Assembly: GCF_006345805.1 (NCBI RefSeq)
Contig: NC_043000.1
Coordinates: 120,590,001-120,654,000 of the forward strand
Direction: 5' to 3'
Origin: Octopus sinensis
Lineage: Eukaryota
Length of the DNA stretch: 64,000 nucleotides
Positions 1,150-64,000 of the stretch are shown here, in pieces; positions within the stretch are counted from its first letter, which is position 1, and the number at the start of each line of letters is the position of its first letter. The position numbers and the translations under genes were made by a program. The notes under the pieces are model-generated. The model did no database searches. It saw nothing but the letters and a program-made list of their open reading frames with translations, and was not told the DNA's origin.

Positions 1150-1203
1150 ATATCATATATATATATATACTTTACGTTATATATATATATATATATATAT
1201 ATA

Positions 1204-1736: not shown

Positions 1737-2125
1737 AGTGGCTAGCCACATTCAGATGGCTAGTACACTTTACGTTGTCGAGCGGTACTGTTTACATCTC
1801 GTTCGGAGATTTATTAATGCTTTCAGACAGTTCTAAATCAGTGACTGTGGTTGCTGGGAAAAACATTAAATAGTTATTTGAAAAGGTCTCCTTCATCGAA
1901 AACCGGTGTTTACCATACGTTGACGAGAGGCAAAAACCTTGAAACTATAGTCCGTATGTATCACTTAGGTTTTCGAGGGAGGATGACCTCCCTTTGCAAG
2001 TATCATAAGGGCACAGAAATTGTGTCTAAGGCCAGCTGGAGACGTCGATCTCTTGGGGCTAAAAGCGTCAGTAACACCCACCCCCAGTGGCTAGCCATAT
2101 TCAGATGGCTAGTACACTTTACGTT
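1737..2125 (+). mobile_element. ORF-less, terminally redundant hammerhead-bearing retroelement (retrozyme-like / non-autonomous Penelope-like)
   Basis: 40-nt direct repeats at 1737-1776 and 2086-2125 (1 mismatch, period 349 nt), internal hammerhead motif, (TA)n on both sides. Confidence 0.7.
1914..1958 (+). ncRNA. minimal type I hammerhead ribozyme (C3>U core variant)
   Basis: CATACG-TTGACGA-GAGG caaaaa CCTT-GAAAC-tata-GTC-CGTATG: 6-bp stem I, 4-bp stem II, palindromic TATA loop III. Confidence 0.75.
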
Positions 2126-13892: not shown

Positions 13893-13934
<42 letters not shown>

Positions 13935-14112
13935 CAATTAAGGATAACTTCTTAATAAGGAATCTTTTCTCATCCGACATGCAGTTCGAAAAAGCCCGCC
14001 ATTTACCGAATATATGATTTATAAACATTCCATGTGCTTGGCCAGAGTGAATAGATGTCTGTTCGTCTTCGATAGGTAAGGTTGGTGGTTTATTTATGAT
14101 GTGTTCAGAATC

Positions 14113-14169
14113 AGTTCTGCTGATGATCATAGACGTAAGTTAAATGTGAAATCACGGTGATACAGAACT
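14113..14169 (+). ncRNA. type I hammerhead ribozyme, intact core
   Basis: agttctg-CTGATGA-tcat...atgt-GAAA-tcacggtga-TA-cagaact; 7-bp stem I, AUA cleavage triplet. Lies in a ~360-bp element (13932-14292) between (TA)n tracts. Confidence 0.7.
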
Positions 14170-14436
14170 AAATTCATTCTTTAAATGTCTTGCTTTGAAG
14201 AACTGCATTAGGTATGATTAGTGTAATTTTGGTAGTAATGACTTTGTCCCTCATAGTGTGAGGCATTTATGTGTAATAATGCCCTCTATACAATATATAT
14301 ATATATATATACATATATATACATATATATATAATATATATATAATATTACATAATATTACATATAATATATGATATATATATATATATATATATAATAT
14401 ATATATATTATCTATATCTATCTATCTATCTATATA

Positions 14437-14600: not shown

Positions 14601-14761
14601 ATTTAACCTAAATTCGAGTCACCAGCCAAAGAAGAAATAAAGTTAGACTTTTTTTCTATGCCAAAGAAAAATGATTTTATTCACACAAATATGCAACCAA
14701 TGAGTTTAAAGTACAAGTAAGGCTGTTGACTGGGAGAACACAAACATGGTTTAAATAGTAA

Positions 14762-15105
14762 GCTTTTTTGAGCTCTCATAAGGAGGCGAGTGTAAGTTCC
14801 ATCCAATCGCTTCTCAAGCTTCTTTGATAACGTCCAGGTTTCTGAGCCATATAGTAGAATTGGTTCGACTGTGGCTTTGAAGATTTTAAGTTTGAAATCT
14901 CTACTTAGATTTGATGACCAGATCTTATGCAAATCATTACAAGCTGACCAGGCCACACCCTGTCTAACGAGAAAATCTTTTTCATATGATGATATGTATG
15001 ACCCAAGATATTTGTAATAAGAGACCATATTTAAGAGCGTATTATTGAGAGTATGGATGATGAAATCACTATTGGACAGGCACTTGTTTACATATTCAGT
15101 GTCTA
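14762..15105 (-). mobile_element. RTE-group LINE RT C-terminal fragment
   Basis: YKYLGSYIS...KLKIFKATVEPILLYGSETWTLSKKLEKRLDGTYTRLLMRA. Confidence 0.85.
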
Positions 15106-16267
15106 TGCACTGATGGATCTAATCGCACCACAGCAAGAGCGATGACCATTTGTGTGTGTCTATGTGTGTGAAATATTCAAGTCGTACTGTTCAGAGACGT
15201 ATATCAATACAGTAAATTTCCTTCTTCAAATAGTCACTCATCATGAACATGAGATATTGTATACCTCAATTTTTTTTATTATCATCATCTTAGTTCTTGT
15301 CCTATTAACACTATTCAATAGATACACAGATGTATTCCAATGCTTATCGTCTTTTGACCTGCAACACATGGCTGGATTATCTGCATTTCCTGTTGTCAAC
15401 GTCTATATATCTGTAATAGCCACAATTGGAAACACCACATGCATTGCGTATATAGGCACGTGTATGTATATAAGCTATAGACAGATAAATAGATAAATTG
15501 ATCTAGCCCTTCAACTAGATAGATTTATTGATCTCTTTCCTAAACCAGAGAAAGAGTAAATTAAATGTAAAAAAACGAGAATTTCTGTTCAATCAAATTA
15601 CCAGTACTTTTGTGTTTAATATTCCGATTAACCATTTAAAACTAAGTTTTTATTTTGCGACAGTTTTCTTGGTTTGTATAAAACCCGTTTTCATCTGTTG
15701 TAATCGTCGCCATAGAAAATGGCGCTGTGACAGCGTAATTACACGACAACAATTAGATTACGACATACATATGAATAAATTAAAGTAAATAATACAAAAT
15801 TCCTGAGAGTAATTACTATAAAGGCATCCGTAGTAATTAAATAAACTTGTCTGTTTCCAATGTATTCATTTGCTCTTTTATTGACATTTTTATAAGTGAA
15901 CACTGTCCAAAATACGATATATTTGCGTTACCAATTCCCACTTCGAATGTTCCCAAGCCTTCTTTGGAAGAAATGTTTTAAATGCAAAGCTAAATAAAAG
16001 GAGAGAAAGAAAAGAGAATTCACTGAAGTACTATTTGTAAAAGATGGCATACACTAAGAAAAAAAAAGTAAAGCAAATATATCGCTAGGCAACTAAACAC
16101 ACACACACATACAGGTAGATAGATACACCTGTATGTGTAATTACATACGAACACATTTGCACATATATATATATATATGCATATATATGTATACGTATAT
16201 ATATATAATGTATGTGTATAATATATATATATATATATACACATATGTATACGTATATGTATATATG

Positions 16268-29660: not shown

Positions 29661-30280
29661 AATGAGTGGAAGTAGTTGATGTGTTGTTTGACTTAAAGTT
29701 GGCACGTTATGGATTATAGCTGTGATTGGGGCCGATTTTTAATGGATTCTTAGGAATGTAATATTTGCGTGTGTATTTGTGTTATTCTAATGCTGAGGTG
29801 GATATATCGTTTGTCGTAGACCCGTTCAGAAGGGGTCTGTATTTTGTAATAAAGAGAGTTTCTTTACTTATTCGTTGGCTCGAGGTTGTATCGTCCCTGA
29901 ATTGATAGAGGGGGAAAATCCTGAAGTTTGGTGTTTTGTTGTTGGCGCAAATATCTGTGTTGGCTGAATGCTATTTTTCTGTTTTGGGGAATTTTTATCT
30001 GGGATCTGTGCAGGGCCATTCTTTTACGCAACCTATTTTTGTTTGGCCTATGTATTGCTCTTGACACCCAGAGCAGGTTAGTGTGTATATCAGTTCCCCG
30101 AAGCACATGTGAAGTTGCTTTTCACTGTAAACCGTTGTCCCTGTTTGAAGGAGAACTCTGATCCCTCAATTAGATAATCGCATATCCCGCAATTGGGTCT
30201 TCCACATTTTTTTACTGTCGGCTTTTGTGTTTCTACACACTAACATAGGTTTTGGAGTCGTTGTACCTATTCGTTTAGGC

Positions 30281-37635: not shown

Positions 37636-38016
37636 TGCATCTATCTATCTATCTATCTATCTACATATCTATCTTTCAACCTCTTCCTCTCTCTCTACAA
37701 GCACACACACATACACACATGTATGAATATATTATCAAGGTTTTTATAGAAATAATAAAAATAAGTGCACATATTTTTATGTATAATCATATCATATATA
37801 CTTGTGTGTGTGTGTATGTGTGTATGTGTTGTGCTGCGTGTGAGTTTCTACACACATATATCTATCCATACTTATGAAGATAGATATTTAAAGCCGCGTT
37901 CATACACTGACACATCTACATGAATCACGGTAAATATATAGGTATACATCTACTTATTACACATATGTTTAGATGTATATATAGTTGGGTGTATATATCT
38001 ATATATGCTGCAGAAC

Positions 38017-38916: not shown

Positions 38917-39355
38917 AGGCGACCAACTGGGAGAGTAATTAGCACGTTGCTCAAAATGCTTCGCAGTATAACATCCAGCGGCGAGCTGGCAGAATCGTTA
39001 GCACGCCAGGCGAAATGCTTAGCAGTATTTCGTCTGCCGCTACGTTCTGAGTTCAAATTCCGCCGAGGTTGACTTTGCCTTTCACCTTTTCGGGGGTCGA
39101 TTAAATAAGTACCAGTTACGCACTGGGGTCGACGTAATCGACTTAATCCGTTTATCTGTCCTTGTTTGTCCTCTCAGTGTTAAGCCCCTTGTGGGTAGTA
39201 AAGAAATAAGCATTACATCCAGCTCTTTAGTTTTAGAGTTCGAATTCACTTGATGTTGGCTGTGTCTTTCATCTTTTTGGGGTCGATAAAATAAAGAATA
39301 TATAATCGATAAATTCCTTTCCTTAAAATTTCTGGTCTTCTGTTAGAATTTGAAA
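38917..39355 (+). mobile_element. young family M SINE (~38980-39208) nested inside an old family M copy
   Basis: TSD agtataacatccagc / agcattacatccagc (38965-38979, 39209-39223); host head upstream, host Meta domain downstream. Confidence 0.8.
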
Positions 39356-39454: not shown

Positions 39455-40470
39455 TTTATGGAAAAAGAACATCCGGGTTCGTTGCTGCGTTGCAAAGGAC
39501 CTTTCAAATACTAGTATTGATACAGGAAAGAAAGAAAATTATACATAATAATGTGTCGCCAACCGATCTGTGCTGTTCAGTTTTTCACGCTGGGACGATC
39601 AAAAGAATAAGTGGGAAAAATACCAACAGAGATCTGGAACGCTCTATAATATTCCACAAGAGGAAAGATATGTCTGCAATTCCATTCATAATGGCTGAAT
39701 TCACTGCTTTCCTCGCATATAGAAGGTTGCGTATGACACTTCTGCTCGTCTCACAGCATGCGGGCATAAATCTGCTGGTGACGGTTGAGAAACTTCGTGA
39801 ATTTATTAAGGTAATAACAACAATTGCAGTAACGATGTGAAGTAGCAATAGTACAATGGAAATTACAATGTCTTCTAGACATTCACACCTACAAGGAAAC
39901 ATGGTTATAAAATCTCCTGGGAAAATCAAACAAAAGGAAAAGAGAAGAGCAAATTAACAATAACGAAATAGAGAAAAAAGCTGGCACAAGAAGCTAGTAG
40001 TAACAAAAATAGCGGCCTAGTAAGGCGGCGAGCTGGCAGAAGCGTTAGCACCGCGGGTGAAATGCTTACCGGTATCTCGTCTGCCGCTACGTTCTGAGTT
40101 CAAATTCCGCTGAGGTCGACTTTGCCTTTCATCTTCTCGGGGGTCAATAAATTAAGTACTAGTTATGCACTGGGGTCGATGTAATCGACGTAATCCGTTT
40201 GTCTATCCTTGTTTGTCCCCTCTATGTTTAGCCCCTTGTGGGTAATAAAAAATAAGAAACGAAAATAGCGGCCTAGCACTAATTGAAATTATTCTTTGGA
40301 TGGCATTATTTCTATAATAAATTGTAAGGCGTTTGAGTTGATTTCGATGTTAATTTTATAACTAGCTGTTTATCTTTACCTCCTTCACTCACGGCTGTTA
40401 TCTTCAATCAGTAACTTATTGGGAAAATAGCAACTATTTTGCTTGCAAATACTTTAACATTTCCTGTATA
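39455..40470 (-). pseudogene. possible decayed intronless class A GPCR pseudogene
   Basis: Ordered minus-strand peptides TGNVKVF, ITAVSE, AIQRIISISARPL, VIVNLLFSFPF, a Cys-containing loop, IVISIVLLLLHIVTAIVVITLINSR and FFLSCINTSI*KVLCNAATNP; stops, frameshifts and a SINE insertion. Confidence 0.33.
40024..40255 (+). mobile_element. family M SINE with 19-bp TSD
   Basis: aac(a/g)aaaatagcggcctag at 40002-40020 and 40258-40276. Confidence 0.92.
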
Positions 40471-44113: not shown

Positions 44114-44164
44114 ACGATATATATATATATATACATAAGCAATAAGAAATCTCTGAGCAATTGT

Positions 44165-44209
44165 CACACACTGATGACGAGTCAATATTCAGAAACCCGG
44201 ATCCGTGTG
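44165..44209 (+). ncRNA. minimal hammerhead ribozyme (decayed), same family as 1914-1958
   Basis: cacaca-CTGATGA-c gagt caat attc a-GAAAC-ccgg-ATC-cgtgtg; downstream sequence is homologous to 1960-2030. Confidence 0.65.
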
Positions 44210-44310
44210 TAACACATCAGGTTGAAGATGGGAAGGATGACTTCCCTTTGCAAATACTGATAGGGCACAGAATGTGTGACAATCGCCACACTTAGATATC
44301 TGTCTATCTA

Positions 44311-44408: not shown

Positions 44409-47103
44409 TAGAGTAGAGGGTGAGCTAGTTAAGAAGCTAGAAGAGGCAATTTGAAGCGGCATCGCATCCGACGTTTTGGCAGCGAGATTGGCCCTCGACC
44501 AACACTTCAACGCCAAACACGAAGGGTGTGCTGTCAGAGCTAGGATGCGTGCTCTAAGGAACCAAGGTGTTGGAGCCGCGAGAGCAGCCCGGGTGGCAGG
44601 TCGCAACAGGGTAACAAAGCCACCATTCGGTCTCTGGTAGATGAACAGGGGCGCGAATTGCTCGAGCCAAGTAAAATGTGTGAAGCCTTTCAGCAGCATT
44701 TTGCCCGACTGTTCGGGACGAGTGGCGGGCAAGAACGTAGGGTGGACTTCATTCCCTACCTACACAGCCTACCACGACTCTCGACAAGAGGGGCAGGGCG
44801 CTGCGAAGGTGTCATCACGGCGGCAGAAGTGCAGGACGCGATGGCAGAATGCTCGAGGGACAAATCGCCGGATTTGGGTGCAGACTTGAAAATTTTGGCC
44901 AAGGTGTTAGCCAAGAGGTTGGCGCTTGTCATCGAGAAACTGGTCGACAAGGCGCAAACGTGCGCCGTGCCGGGCCGGACCATCCATGACAACCTCCACC
45001 TGATGCGCTACATCATAGACAGGGTAGTTAACGAACCTGGCATGGGTGGGGCGCTGATCAATTTGGAAAGCTTTCGATAGGGTAGACCATCGATACTTGG
45101 AGGCTGTCCTCAGAGCGGCTGGCTTAGTTCCCGTCTTCCCCGGCTGGACAGCCGCTTTGTACAGAGGCATCCGTTCGGTAATTCGCGTAAATGGACATCT
45201 ATCGAGACCTTTCGACATTGCACGTTTGGTCCGTCAGGGATTCCACCTCTCGTCGCTTCTATACGTATTGACTCTCGAGCCATTATTGCGGAAGCTGGCA
45301 ACTCTGAGGGGCATCCCGTGAGAACTGGGATGCGGGACGAGCGTGTCTGCATACGCGGACGACGTTACCATCATAGTGTCTAGCCACGAGCATATCGAGC
45401 AGGTCGGCGAGACACTGAAAGACTACAAAGTGGGGACAGGAGCGAAAATCAACAGGGAAAAGTCAGTGGGATTGCAACTAAGCACCTGGAGAAGCAAGCC
45501 CATGCCGTCCACCAGCGCCTCCGTTGTGGGACGCTGCACCGACGGTCCGGTCGAGTTGGTCAAGGTCTGGTTCGGTCCGGACCTGGAGAGAACTGGAACG
45601 GGATAACGAGTAGGGTGGTCACTCTCGCCCGGCCGAGAGGAAACTGTCCCTAAAAGTTCGGGCGGAGGTGGCGAACACGTACATCGTGTCCGTCATCTAT
45701 TACCGACTGACCGTCATGCCTTGTCCCGACCCTACCATCACCAAACTAGAACGCATTCTTCTTGTGGAAAGGATGCGTCCCGATGGTCAGGTGATCCATT
45801 TGCTGTCAACACCCGTTAAAAGGAGGACTGGGCATGCCGTGGTTGATGATGCGCAGACACGCGCTGAGACTGCGACATCTCAGGCTCTACGTAGACGACG
45901 GTGAACAGGTGCGGTCGCCGTTTGTGAAGCACGCTTTCCCGCAGCTCGTCTCCATGATCGAACTGCAGTCGTGGATCAAAAAGAGGCCGAGGAAGGGCGA
46001 ATGGCACCGTGAGTGTCGCGTTGCTCTCAAGCAACTCTGCCGTCCCGGGTCGACCTTGAGTGACTCCATCACAACCCAAGCATTCTATAGGGGATTAGTG
46101 GAGGGGAGGTACGACGACGGGCTCGGGGCGAACCTGGACGTCGACGAGGAATACCTGACCCGCCTGTTCGGGATGACTTTCGGGCCAGGGCCCATGGACA
46201 ACTTCCAGAGATCCCTGGCCTGGCAGTGCTACCGAGAAGCGCTACCCGTTCGGGATAAGCTCTACAGACACGGCTCGAGAAACACGGGGCCGACTTGCCC
46301 GAGATGCGGTCAGAGCGACGAAACCGCTCTGCACGCACTCGTGCAGTGTCCAACAATTTCCGACCTGTGGGCTTATGTCGAACAACTGCTGTCACGTGTG
46401 GGACGAGTAGGTTTATCAGCTGAGTCTATCGTCAATATTGTCACGCCTCCTTCCTTCAAACGGGAAGGAAGAGCTATTTTCATCATCCTTGTGGCTATGG
46501 CGAAATAATGCATCTGGTGGACGCGTCTGAAAGGATTAGAGACAAACACTTTCCTCTCTGGTCAATCTCCCATCAACTTCTTCAAGTACCACTTGAAAAG
46601 GAAAGTGAGAGTAGAGAGGCAAGTTTTGTCTAGCGAATGTTTTAAAAAAAGATGGGTGAATGTAGCAAGGACGGCACGTATGAATGACGAAGCCACCTTG
46701 AGCATAATCCTATGAACCCAGAAATTGAAAACAGAGGGTTACCCACTTGCAAACAAATGTGGTAACATATAACAATATTGACCGAGGTTACCGTGGTCTT
46801 TGTCGTAGGCTTTTCTTCCCACGGATAAACCTTATCTGCTTACCCTTTACACCGTACATCATGACACTGTGATACACGATCCCTATTGATAATTTTTTTT
46901 CTTCTTTCCCTTTTTCCTCTTTTTTCTTCCTTTTTCTTTTTTCTTTTTTTTCGTTTCTTTTCCTTTTTTCTTTTTTTCTTTTTTCCCTTTTACGATCCTT
47001 TTTGATCGAAAACCTACGCCATTTTTTTTTCATCCCCCAAGAGAAAAGCTCTACCTTGTAATTTGTCCCATCTGTGTGCAGCCTTGTGTGGCCAATAAAG
47101 AAA
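44409..47103 (+). mobile_element. Tx1-like (L1 superfamily) non-LTR retrotransposon, 5'-truncated and frameshifted
   Basis: DLKILAKVLAKRL, QTCAVPGRTIHDNL, AFDRVDH, VRQG..LSSLLYVLTLEPLL, SAYADD, C-terminal CPRCGQSDETALHALVQC; T-rich 3' UTR ending aataaagaaa; (TCTA)n on both flanks. Confidence 0.92.
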
Positions 47104-61082: not shown

Positions 61083-64000
61083 TTTTTTTTTCTTTCAAAT
61101 TTTCTTCCATTTCTTGCCGAGTGTCTTCCCGACTCCTAGGGCAAAGAAACTCATAGTGTATATTGGTAGGCCATTAAACCAAACTCAGTAGTTCGTTCAT
61201 TATTTATTTATTTATTTTTTTTTTTTAAAGTTAAATTAAAATACATGAGCAGCAACAGTTCTCACATCGACAATGCTCTTCTCAATACGTGTGATGTACC
61301 AGTTAAGACAATCTTTTGCACTTCTTGCAGGGATGGTAAGCCAGGGATCATTCTCATATAATTTTCGGTTCCCTTCTTGATCATTCCTAGTGCTCCTACG
61401 ATCACTGGTATTGTAACCGCCTTGAGATGCCACATTTTCTCAATTTCAATGAGTAGGTCTTTATATTTTCTGAGCTTGTCAAACTCTTTCGCTGAGATAT
61501 TATGATCACAGGGGATGCTCAAGTCGATCAATAAGCAAACTTATTGTTTTGGTCTTTCACAACAATATCTGGTTTATTGGCCTTGATGGTTCGGTCTGTA
61601 TGTACTGGAAAGTCCCACAGAATGGTTACATTTTCTCCTTCAGTTACAGCCTCAGGGTGGTGATTATACCACTTGTCGGCAGTTTTGATATTGTAATGCC
61701 GACTTATTAGCCAGTGGAGATATTGGCCAACACTGTCATGTCTTAATTTATACTCCACTGGTGCTAAGACTTTACATCCAGAGATTAGGTGGTCCACTGT
61801 TTCAATCATGTCGTTGCAGAATCGGCATTTTTGGTCTGCTCCATTTTTCATCACATTGGCCTGGTAGTTCCGGGTTAATAGGCTTTGGTCTTGAGCAGCC
61901 AGGATGAAACCTTCGCTCTCTGCTTTTAGCCCTGAGCTCCGCAGCCACTGATGGGTTTGCTTCTGGTCAACATCAGCTTGTTTGCTACGGGTCACATATT
62001 TGCCGTGCAGAGGTTTCTCCTCCCACCTATCAGCCAATTGCTCGTGCGCTTTTTTCATTGCCATCATTTTCACCTTCTTTGCAACAATAGTTGCCGTACT
62101 TCCCTCGGGTTGTTCAGTTTGGGTATCCTGCACGAGATCAATAGCAAATTGTTTGCTTTCCTTGATGATAGAATGAAGCTTCTTTCGTCTCTCGGATTTT
62201 CACGAGCTTTAGCATCCAGTCATTCGATATTTCGAGATATTTGGCCAGTCCAATTGTGGTTGTTTTGTAAGCTAGTTCGAATTGGATCAGGCCTCGACCT
62301 CCTTGGGCTCTGGGAGGTAAAGGCGATCTACGTCTGCCTTTGGGTGGTGCATCCTATTACAACTCAGCAGCTTGCGTATTTTCTATCTATATTCTTTACT
62401 TCACTCATATTCCAGTTAAACACATTGTAGCTATAAGTAACAACTGGAACTGCTAAGGAATTTATAGCTAACACCTTGTTACGTGCATTTAGTTCAGATT
62501 TCAGGACTGCACGAACTCTCCTATAACATTCCTCCTGATTTTCTCTTTCATGCTTGCATGCTGAATACCAGAGCCTTCATTTATCCCTAAATATTTGTAT
62601 GTCTGTTCTTGCTCAAGCTCTCTTATGGACTGTGTCAACATCTAACACGACTGAATTTGTGGTCTTCACTTTCCCTTTCTGGAAAGTGGCCTTGGCACAC
62701 TTCTCAAGTCCAAACTCCATCCCGATGGCATCGCTGAATGCTTTCACGGTGTGCAATAGGCCTTCAAGTTCATTATTGTCTTTACCATAAAGTTTTAAGT
62801 CATCCATATAAAATAGATGGCTTATTTTTTTATTGGCAATTTTATACCCATACCCTGTTCTGTTTAATTCACTTGTAAGGTGTATTAGGGCTATGCAGAA
62901 TATTAAAGGTGAAAGTGAGTCACCTTGAAAAATTCCACAGTTGATGTTTATATTTTCTGAGGCAAGTACTCCATTAGAGTGGTATAATTGGAGATTCGTA
63001 TTCCACAACGACATATTGTGCTTCAGGAAGTTTGAAATCACAGGGGAAATTTTAAGATGTCCAGCGATCTCAAGATCCATGGATGCGGTATACTGTCGAA
63101 GGCCTTTTTATAGTCAATCCATGCGGTGCTGAGATTTCTGCGCTTGTTGTGACAGTTCTCAAGGATCATACGATTGATTAGCAGTTGATCTTTGCATCCG
63201 TAAGAGCCTCGGCGGCACCCTTTTTGTTCAATGGGGAAAATATCGTTCTTCTCCATGAATGCATATGTTTTCTCCGCCAGGATAGATGTTAGGATTTTAT
63301 ACGTGGTGGATAGACAGGTTATAGGCCGATAGTTTTTTGGAAGGTTGGTTTCGTTATTCTTTGGGAGTAGGTAAGTAATGCCACTTGCTAACCATTCAGG
63401 TGTTTTCTTTGGGTCTCTCAAAATTCCATTGAGCAGCTGAACTAGCTTACCGTGTGCGCACGGGAGCGATGCGAGCCAGAAATTCGGCACCCTATCTTTA
63501 CCGGGGGATTTCCAATTATGGGCCTTCGTGAGTGCCTTTCTTAGGTCTGCTATTGTGATGTCTTCCCATGCTTGTTGTTGTAAATTTTGGTAGGATCCTT
63601 CAGTTTGTATAATCCAGTCTGCATTTATGTTGTACGTCTTCTTGTCACTCCAAATCCTTTCCCAAAAGTTTTGAACTTCTTCCATGGGAGGGGGGTCTTT
63701 AACGGTTACTTTCTCCTTCCCTATTTCTCTGTAGAATTTTTTGGCATTGGATGTGAACAGCTTATTTTGCTTGTAAAACTGTTTCTCTTCTCAAATCTTC
63801 GTATTCTTTGGGCTTTTGCTTGGACTTTTTGTTTCAGCGTTTCTTTTATTGATATCAGTTCTTCTCTTGGTGAGGATCCAAATTTTCTCTTCATCTTTCT
63901 TCCTGTTCTGGATCTTACATCATTTCCACATATTAGTTCATTTAATATTGATATTTCCCCTCTCATAAATTCAATCTCTTTTTCAATTTTACTTCTCCAG
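61083..64000 (-). mobile_element. R4/Dong-like REL non-LTR retrotransposon (family A), frameshifted, continuing beyond the window
   Basis: WKSPGKD, NYRPITCL, KAFDSIPH, GIFQGDSLSPL, FYMDDLKL, CRFC..ETVDHLISGC, RHD, KPDIVV...IDLSIP...K; 3' end abuts (TTA)n. Confidence 0.95.

Follow-up and report, generated by a model that had tools for sequence, protein, structure and literature searches.

A putative hammerhead retrozyme monomer with a Penelope-like tail at both ends in a (TA)n microsatellite of Octopus sinensis

The element at positions 1737 to 2125 of the window (the whole 64,000-nt stretch of Octopus sinensis DNA analyzed here, contig NC_043000.1, positions 120,590,001 to 120,654,000) is best explained as a non-LTR retrozyme monomer, i.e., a non-autonomous Penelope-like element, that a Penelope-like reverse transcriptase/GIY-YIG endonuclease likely copied from a head-to-tail RNA into (TA)n. 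We give this reading a probability of about 0.75. A retrozyme monomer is favored because the size, GC content, and ribozyme type of the unit and its lack of coding all match this class.

The element is bounded by a 40-nt direct repeat (1737 to 1776 and 2086 to 2125) with a start-to-start distance of 349 nt. The two copies were 39/40 identical, the sole mismatch being C versus T at repeat position 13, and blastn inside the window recovered the pair with an E value of 8e-14. The repeat could be extended neither leftward, where the neighbors are (TA)n and a C-rich run, nor rightward, where they are the unit start and (AT)n. On either side the element adjoins (TA)n, with the target microsatellite on the left (1636 to 1736) and a TA-rich flank on the right (2126 to 2145), both evident from the sequence. 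There was no discernible target site duplication (TSD), as the only perfect flanking duplication was 10 nt of the microsatellite itself. The 40-nt redundancy at a 349-nt period inside (TA)n, as recorded by the first-pass annotation, is therefore real. Directly adjoining the right side is a separate, miniature inverted-repeat transposable element (MITE)-like element of 163 nt (2146 to 2308), which has 48-nt inverted arms that are 88% complementary and a 14-nt duplication at its left edge.

Parts of the stretch were contained in 20 of 24 listed public sequencing runs, representing 11 studies and 4 organisms, with a best share of 0.52; no RNA run was listed among them. The element was aligned to the assembled contigs of four of these runs (X1, X4, X13, and X20; organisms A and B), among which X1 and X4 are genome-sized and X13 and X20 are only presumptively labeled as RNA. 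The numbers of aligned contigs were 1,375 (X1), 1,128 (X4), 43 (X13), and 36 (X20), although insertion ends and copy numbers are not reliably readable from assembled contigs. Most aligned contigs were <95% alike to the element (828 of 1,375 in X1). Together with a second member in the window, described below, the X1 and X4 contigs establish that there are multiple copies, and by this evidence the element is an abundant, diversified, high-copy family in at least two organisms. Exact-pattern scans of metagenome, viral, and genome contigs yielded 0 loci; these collections are microbial and viral and little informative here.

The same contigs bear on the nature of the 40-mer. In all four runs it was preceded by an AC-rich run. 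In seven X1 contigs it ran into (TA)n and flanks that differed, and in two X20 contigs (from a run with a presumptive RNA label) the 3' tail was followed by the unit start, a junction that either a circle or tandem copies, in a DNA array or in a transcript, could produce. The T at 2098, the mismatch letter of the 3' copy, was the minority letter, with most relatives carrying C; therefore, both copies were likely identical at insertion. One rival explanation takes the 40-mer as a long TSD of a 309-nt insert. In its favor, TSDs of retrozymes, when present, have been described as >4 bp. However, contigs of other samples show element sequence at either end of the 40-mer as well as varied TA-rich flanks next to it. 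It is also a hairpin-forming sequence with variants among subfamilies, and the true flanks are (TA)n. We consider this rival extremely improbable: judged by the four runs, all of which carry it as element sequence, the 40-mer belongs to the element and is not a TSD, just as had been supposed from the letters.

Furthermore, the 40-mer has a fixed position. It forms a hairpin immediately after the AC-rich run, starting 133 nt and ending 173 nt past the predicted ribozyme cut site, and resembles in this the "tail" of Penelope-like elements; its identity with a stretch between reverse transcription (RT) starts is by analogy. Insertion into (TA)n was also seen for other copies, which likewise adjoin this microsatellite. 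Among the 24 of 260 loose-end rows that were listed, a single TA-flanked end was found, located immediately beyond the 3' end of the element (seven contigs, X1). In addition, a 9- to 10-nt piece identical to the 3' end of the tail was found by sequence match inside (TA)n at 1169 to 1178 (+ strand). Such a match occurred in 1 of 50 microsatellite islands versus 0.007 expected (a post hoc test), and it is probably an extremely 5'-truncated insertion. As other copies and the piece at 1169 to 1178 end at the same 3' place, we conclude that a conserved hairpin of fixed position, not random overshoot, makes up the overlap.

This conclusion runs counter to part of the first-pass annotation, which had attributed the overlap to slight overshoot around a circle and had predicted circularly permuted start points. 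No permuted starts were seen among the 24 of 260 loose-end rows listed. The corresponding rival explanation, in which a 349-nt covalent circle was copied a little more than once around, beginning at an arbitrary position, and the 40-nt overlap is a chance overshoot, accounts for the unit-plus-overlap geometry and for the head-to-tail junction in two X20 contigs. The unit is also well folded, its predicted fold being better than 100/100 shuffles (z of −3.16) and its circular fold reaching −99.6 kcal/mol, and retrozymes of mussel, coral, and axolotl have been demonstrated to form circles (including PMC7229834). However, an arbitrary start does not predict an overlap that exactly matches a conserved hairpin of Penelope tail size right after an AC-rich run, nor that seven X1 contigs reach (TA)n past the same 3' end and that the piece at 1169 to 1178 ends at the same base. 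With no permuted TA junction among the rows listed, we regard this rival as quite unlikely.

Between the two tail copies, which were delimited by the repeat itself, the fold (5' copy), and the letters of relatives (3' copy) and by their occurrence as element sequence in other runs, the unit has a modular layout on the + strand. The 5' tail is followed by a 46-nt segment (1777 to 1822) that also follows the tail in contigs of other runs, and then by a variable middle part peculiar to the short form (1823 to 1913), which was recognized by its fold and is bridged by two X13 contigs and one X20 contig. In the predicted fold, 1896 to 1904 pair with 1968 to 1976, thereby lengthening stem I of the hammerhead at 1914 to 1958. 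Downstream lies a conserved structured module (1959 to 2068) with hairpins at 1977 to 1992, 2009 to 2027, and 2038 to 2053, identified by its fold and by stem-keeping variants; it is likely a protein-binding region. An unpaired AC-rich run (2069 to 2085) directly 5' of the 3' tail is retained as an A/C-rich run in divergent relatives. By analogy with the anole Poseidon element (PMC11167929), this run is likely the internal RT start. Its interpretation as a reverse-complement telomere repeat, as in endonuclease-less Penelope elements, was rejected, since in relatives the run is a simple, variable stretch of A and C, and the element targets (TA)n. Among relatives, the module displayed the changes T2025C and T2053C, which, like T1940C in the hammerhead, convert G-U to G-C pairs in stems, while 2020 and 2045 to 2048, along with 1934 to 1936, are freely varying loop positions. 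In some relatives, a similar A/C-rich run leads into a different tail (loose ends of X13 and X20 contigs at 2061; 1846 to 1909), and further variants of loop III occur (at the 1945 loose ends); these suggest several subfamilies of one architecture.

The hammerhead motif (1914 to 1958, + strand) was identified by pattern, shuffles, and covariation. Stem I (1914 to 1919 with 1953 to 1958) has 6/6 pairs, the core at 1920 to 1926 reads UUGACGA, stem II has 4 bp and a loop of 6 nt and is followed by GAAA, and stem III (C-UAUA-G) has 2 bp within an 8-nt palindrome (1944 to 1951). Cleavage is predicted after the GUC ending at 1952, between 1952 and 1953. The strict hammerhead pattern occurred once in the 64-kb window, in 0/10 shuffles of the window, and in 2/5,000 shuffles of the unit. 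The single mid-unit hammerhead of the first-pass annotation thus stands as a motif beyond chance, although the U in place of C at core position 3, the one deviation, went unmentioned there. Rfam returned 0 matches in the whole window at gathering thresholds, and around the locus at E ≤ 10 it gave 28 weak matches, the hammerhead not among them. The geometry is that of the canonical animal type I hammerhead, which has been described as having a 6-bp helix I, a 4-bp helix II, and a short helix III with a palindromic loop (PMC4209133). With relaxed patterns, shuffled windows gave 0 to 4 chance matches each; because of this, relaxed-pattern matches are treated as leads only.

The U at core position 3 is shared by nearly all relatives. 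C at this position accounted for 0 of a depth of 29,651 in X1 and for 1,097 of 70,846 in X4, and no compensating G8A was found among the 40 of 71 variant rows listed. The 3-8 pair is therefore taken as a U-G wobble, and, since position 3 stays U in nearly all relatives, U3 is by the contig evidence a family trait and not decay of the copy at 1737 to 2125. A U-G wobble at core positions 3 and 8 lowers hammerhead activity. A literature search for an effect of C3U on the hammerhead found no paper. The U3-G8 core likely slows cleavage.

Loop III, in contrast to the freely varying loops, changed in a coordinated manner. Substitutions at 1947 and 1948 convert TATA to TGCA and keep the palindrome, with matching depths at the two positions in 4/4 runs (22,188/22,166, 21,703/21,758, 99.2/99.2, and 36.5/36.5). 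A palindromic loop III has been given as a requirement of dimer-active hammerheads (PMC4209133), and the covariation, as read from the contigs, points to dimer use of the predicted ribozyme. In stem I, A1917G retains a G-U pair, and A1915G and part of T1957C share a depth of 18.2 in X20, consistent with a two-sided change in one contig.

The element appears to be non-coding, as had been claimed. The longest stop-to-stop frame (1845 to 2252) has 135 codons and gave no Pfam match, and the longest ATG-started frame within the element has 56 codons and extends past its end. With tblastn, only 2 of 150 Penelope-type proteins matched, over 18 and 15 residues (E values of 0.045 and 0.021), and 1-nt insertions were common in relatives. 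The unit contained no tRNA gene. An open reading frame (ORF) for a reverse transcriptase plus GIY-YIG endonuclease, as encoded by autonomous Penelope elements, was absent from the element by ORF list, Pfam, and tblastn.

Candidate helpers were found elsewhere in the window. Frameshifted 3' fragments of Penelope-like ORFs are present on the − strand at 37637 to 37091 (HMMER and tblastn matches to reverse transcriptase-GIY-YIG proteins) and at 30236 to 29818 (cysteine linker plus GIY-YIG). Both match proteins of this domain composition with a C-terminal GIY-YIG and a CxxxxCxxC linker. The 37-kb fragment had no match by word-index protein search or Pfam and was placed as Penelope-like by a full HMMER search. 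These fragments would be helpers of a suitable type, a type tied to microsatellite targeting. Neither was recognizable as the autonomous partner: the unit scored 35 and 23 against the 3' ends of the two fragments, while shuffle maxima were 42 and 41. About 800 nt past the 30-kb fragment is a minimal hammerhead with a U3-A8 core variant (about 29030 to 28985, − strand; by pattern), and about 200 nt downstream of the 37-kb fragment is a degenerate minimal one (about 36896 to 36860, − strand; relaxed pattern, within chance range). An exact 13-nt match between 1878 to 1890 and the hammerhead behind the 30-kb fragment may hint at pseudo-LTR (pLTR) ancestry; as evidence it was discarded, the match being not above shuffles.

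The window as a whole is AT-rich and dense in microsatellites, in the manner of octopus genomes, and several further elements were observed in it. An unrelated 360-nt insert at 13934 to 14294 (+ strand) lies between (TA)n tracts. Its hammerhead core (CUGAUGA, at 14120) is intact, with a stem I of 7 bp and a stem III that is longer and nearly palindromic. The insert has no terminal repeat of ≥8 nt and likely represents another retrozyme or pLTR family. Broken fragments of non-LTR retrotransposons (RT) were found at 44544 to 46508 (+), 61528 to 63790 (−), and 14681 to 15118 (−), with an RVT_1 match for 63041 to 63790 and a weak one for 44544 to 45077. A SINE-like repeat of about 200 nt is present at about 2490 to 2680, 38970 to 39200, and 40010 to 40260, and several more copies seem to be present.

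The second family member in the window is a diverged, shorter copy at 44133 to 44297 (+ strand), with an alignment score of 87 versus a shuffle maximum of 35. It lies within (TA)n/(TATC)n and lacks the tail. This copy has its own degenerate hammerhead with a CUGAUGA core at 44171, keeps the first two hairpins of the module, and shows a two-sided (compensatory) change in the hairpin corresponding to 1977 to 1992.

Longer relatives raise the question of origin. At 1822, twelve X4 contigs diverge from the element into different sequence; one of these contigs, with a depth of 336, continues for about 249 nt. Conversely, contigs of 224 to 600 nt enter the element at 1898 or 1936 from different upstream sequence. 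In one X20 contig, a perfect palindrome is joined before 1936. Longer relatives thus apparently share both element ends, as would be expected if the element were an internally deleted Penelope-like element or a fused pLTR whose middle was lost at the DNA or cDNA stage and which spread without a circular or tandem RNA of its own. The summed contig depth, about 20-fold lower at 1825 to 1894 than at 1783 to 1810, is a weak hint in the same direction, as depth is no measure of copy number. However, the short-form junction at 1822 to 1831 was spanned by X13 and X20 contigs, and a 3-nt insertion there was common to 4/4 runs; for these reasons, the short form is, on present contigs, a multi-copy family in its own right. 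Moreover, any coding capacity of the longer relatives is conjectural, and hammerheads with the canonical 6-bp/4-bp geometry typify retrozymes rather than autonomous animal Penelope elements. We consider this scenario unlikely, and, as it concerns origin, it is largely compatible with the retrozyme monomer reading.

Under the retrozyme monomer reading, a tandem copy elsewhere would be transcribed into head-to-tail RNA. Two hammerheads would pair via the palindromic loop III and may excise a unit-length RNA for possible circularization by a host ligase. A Penelope-type protein would bind the hairpin module 3' of the hammerhead and nick (TA)n DNA. cDNA synthesis would then begin at an internal position, the distal boundary of the AC-rich/hairpin tail, and the enzyme would copy one unit and read through the next tail, with the 5' end being resolved at the other boundary of that tail to give unit plus tail. 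A head-to-tail template is needed because the same 40 nt are present at both ends. Whether this template was a circle or a linear multimer is evenly balanced, as both give the same 1.1-mer. In the circular-template footprint proposed in the first-pass annotation, the retroposed, non-coding, hammerhead-bearing element and its head-to-tail template are upheld, but the circle itself does not follow, since a linear tandem transcript would leave the same product. The locus has a single hammerhead and therefore would release no unit-length circle alone, and we regard the copy at 1737 to 2125 as most likely an offspring. The four runs, in which no contig covers the whole stretch, yielded no array with two hammerheads.

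A circle-propagating retrozyme, in which RT starts at the fixed AC-rich hairpin of a 349-nt circular RNA and terminates at this hairpin after one full turn, is a tentative possibility. If true, a tail at each end of a monomer would mark a circular template, and the reported "large TSDs" of animal retrozymes would be Penelope tails. The U3-G8 core plus a selected dimer palindrome would then act as a brake on re-cutting of the circle. For Poseidon, the sole Penelope enzyme studied in this manner, hammerhead cleavage was dispensable for insertion in vitro (PMC11167929), and 8/9 Xenopus retrozyme dimers remained uncleaved in vitro (bioRxiv 10.64898/2026.07.22.740005).

The element class is known, and the family is another example of a non-LTR retrozyme/non-autonomous Penelope-like element. 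Non-LTR retrozymes have units of 150 to 450 bp with a GC content of <50% (PMC7229834), and repeats of about 350 to 390 bp in mussel and the axolotl elements Rtz331 and Rtz353 have been reported (Cervera and de la Peña 2020, PMC7229834). The 349-nt, non-coding unit with 44% GC falls within this range. It shares with metazoan non-LTR retrozymes the unit size, the GC content, one type I hammerhead with a weak palindromic helix III, the absence of an ORF, a high copy number, a stable fold, and coexisting Penelope-like elements. In contrast to these, it is dispersed as a 1.1-mer in (TA)n, has a discrete tail of 40 nt at each end, and carries a U3-G8 core. Tandem arrays, cleavage, and circles are hypothetical for the family described here. 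Plant-type LTR retrozymes, which have a type III hammerhead, LTRs of about 350 bp, and a 4-bp TSD, were rejected as a match, as the motif is of type I and lies outside the 40-nt repeat.

The ends of the element resemble those of Penelope-like elements, which carry a 30- to 40-bp tail at either end and favor (TA)n targets (PMC8557442). In anole Poseidon (PAc), RT has two internal start sites at an AC-rich stem-loop that lies 3' of the hammerhead, and the sequence between these sites constitutes the tail; the enzyme nicks AT-rich DNA (PMC11167929). Shared with the pLTR-plus-tail organization of Poseidon PAc, Neptune/Naiad, and rotifer Penelopes are a hammerhead, an AC-rich stem-loop about 100 to 170 nt further on, a 30- to 40-bp tail, an AT-rich or (TA)n target, the lack of a discernible TSD, and 5'-truncated relatives. 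Inverted head-to-head junctions have been described for rotifer Penelope insertions (PMC3846280), to which the inverted palindromic junction in one X20 contig only is comparable. Unlike Penelope elements, the element has no reverse transcriptase-endonuclease ORF, has the tail at both ends where Penelopes usually have one, and has a canonical instead of a minimal hammerhead.

Retrozymes have recently been presented as Penelope derivatives with common monomers (Li, Clavereau, and Pollet 2026, bioRxiv 10.64898/2026.07.22.740005). Those monomers are likewise dispersed, carry a single hammerhead, are pLTR related, and need a Penelope enzyme in trans, a dependence also described for non-autonomous Chlamys elements such as MRC1 (PMC8557442). 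That work, however, builds on co-occurrence in vertebrates and pLTR similarity, and in the accessible part of the preprint a treatment of tails at insertion ends was not found. Circular templates have already been proposed for Penelope-like elements and retrozymes (Cervera and de la Peña 2014; Cervera 2020), as has more-than-unit RT of circles. Among titles and abstract openings, we found no octopus or cephalopod hammerhead retrozyme matching the family and no paper linking Penelope tails to retrozymes; subscription papers, repeat databases, and supplements may contain either. Overall, Penelope mobilization of retrozymes and circular templates are published proposals that rest on co-occurrence and pLTR similarity, and a small, very high-copy family with sharply defined tails at both ends makes both of them testable.
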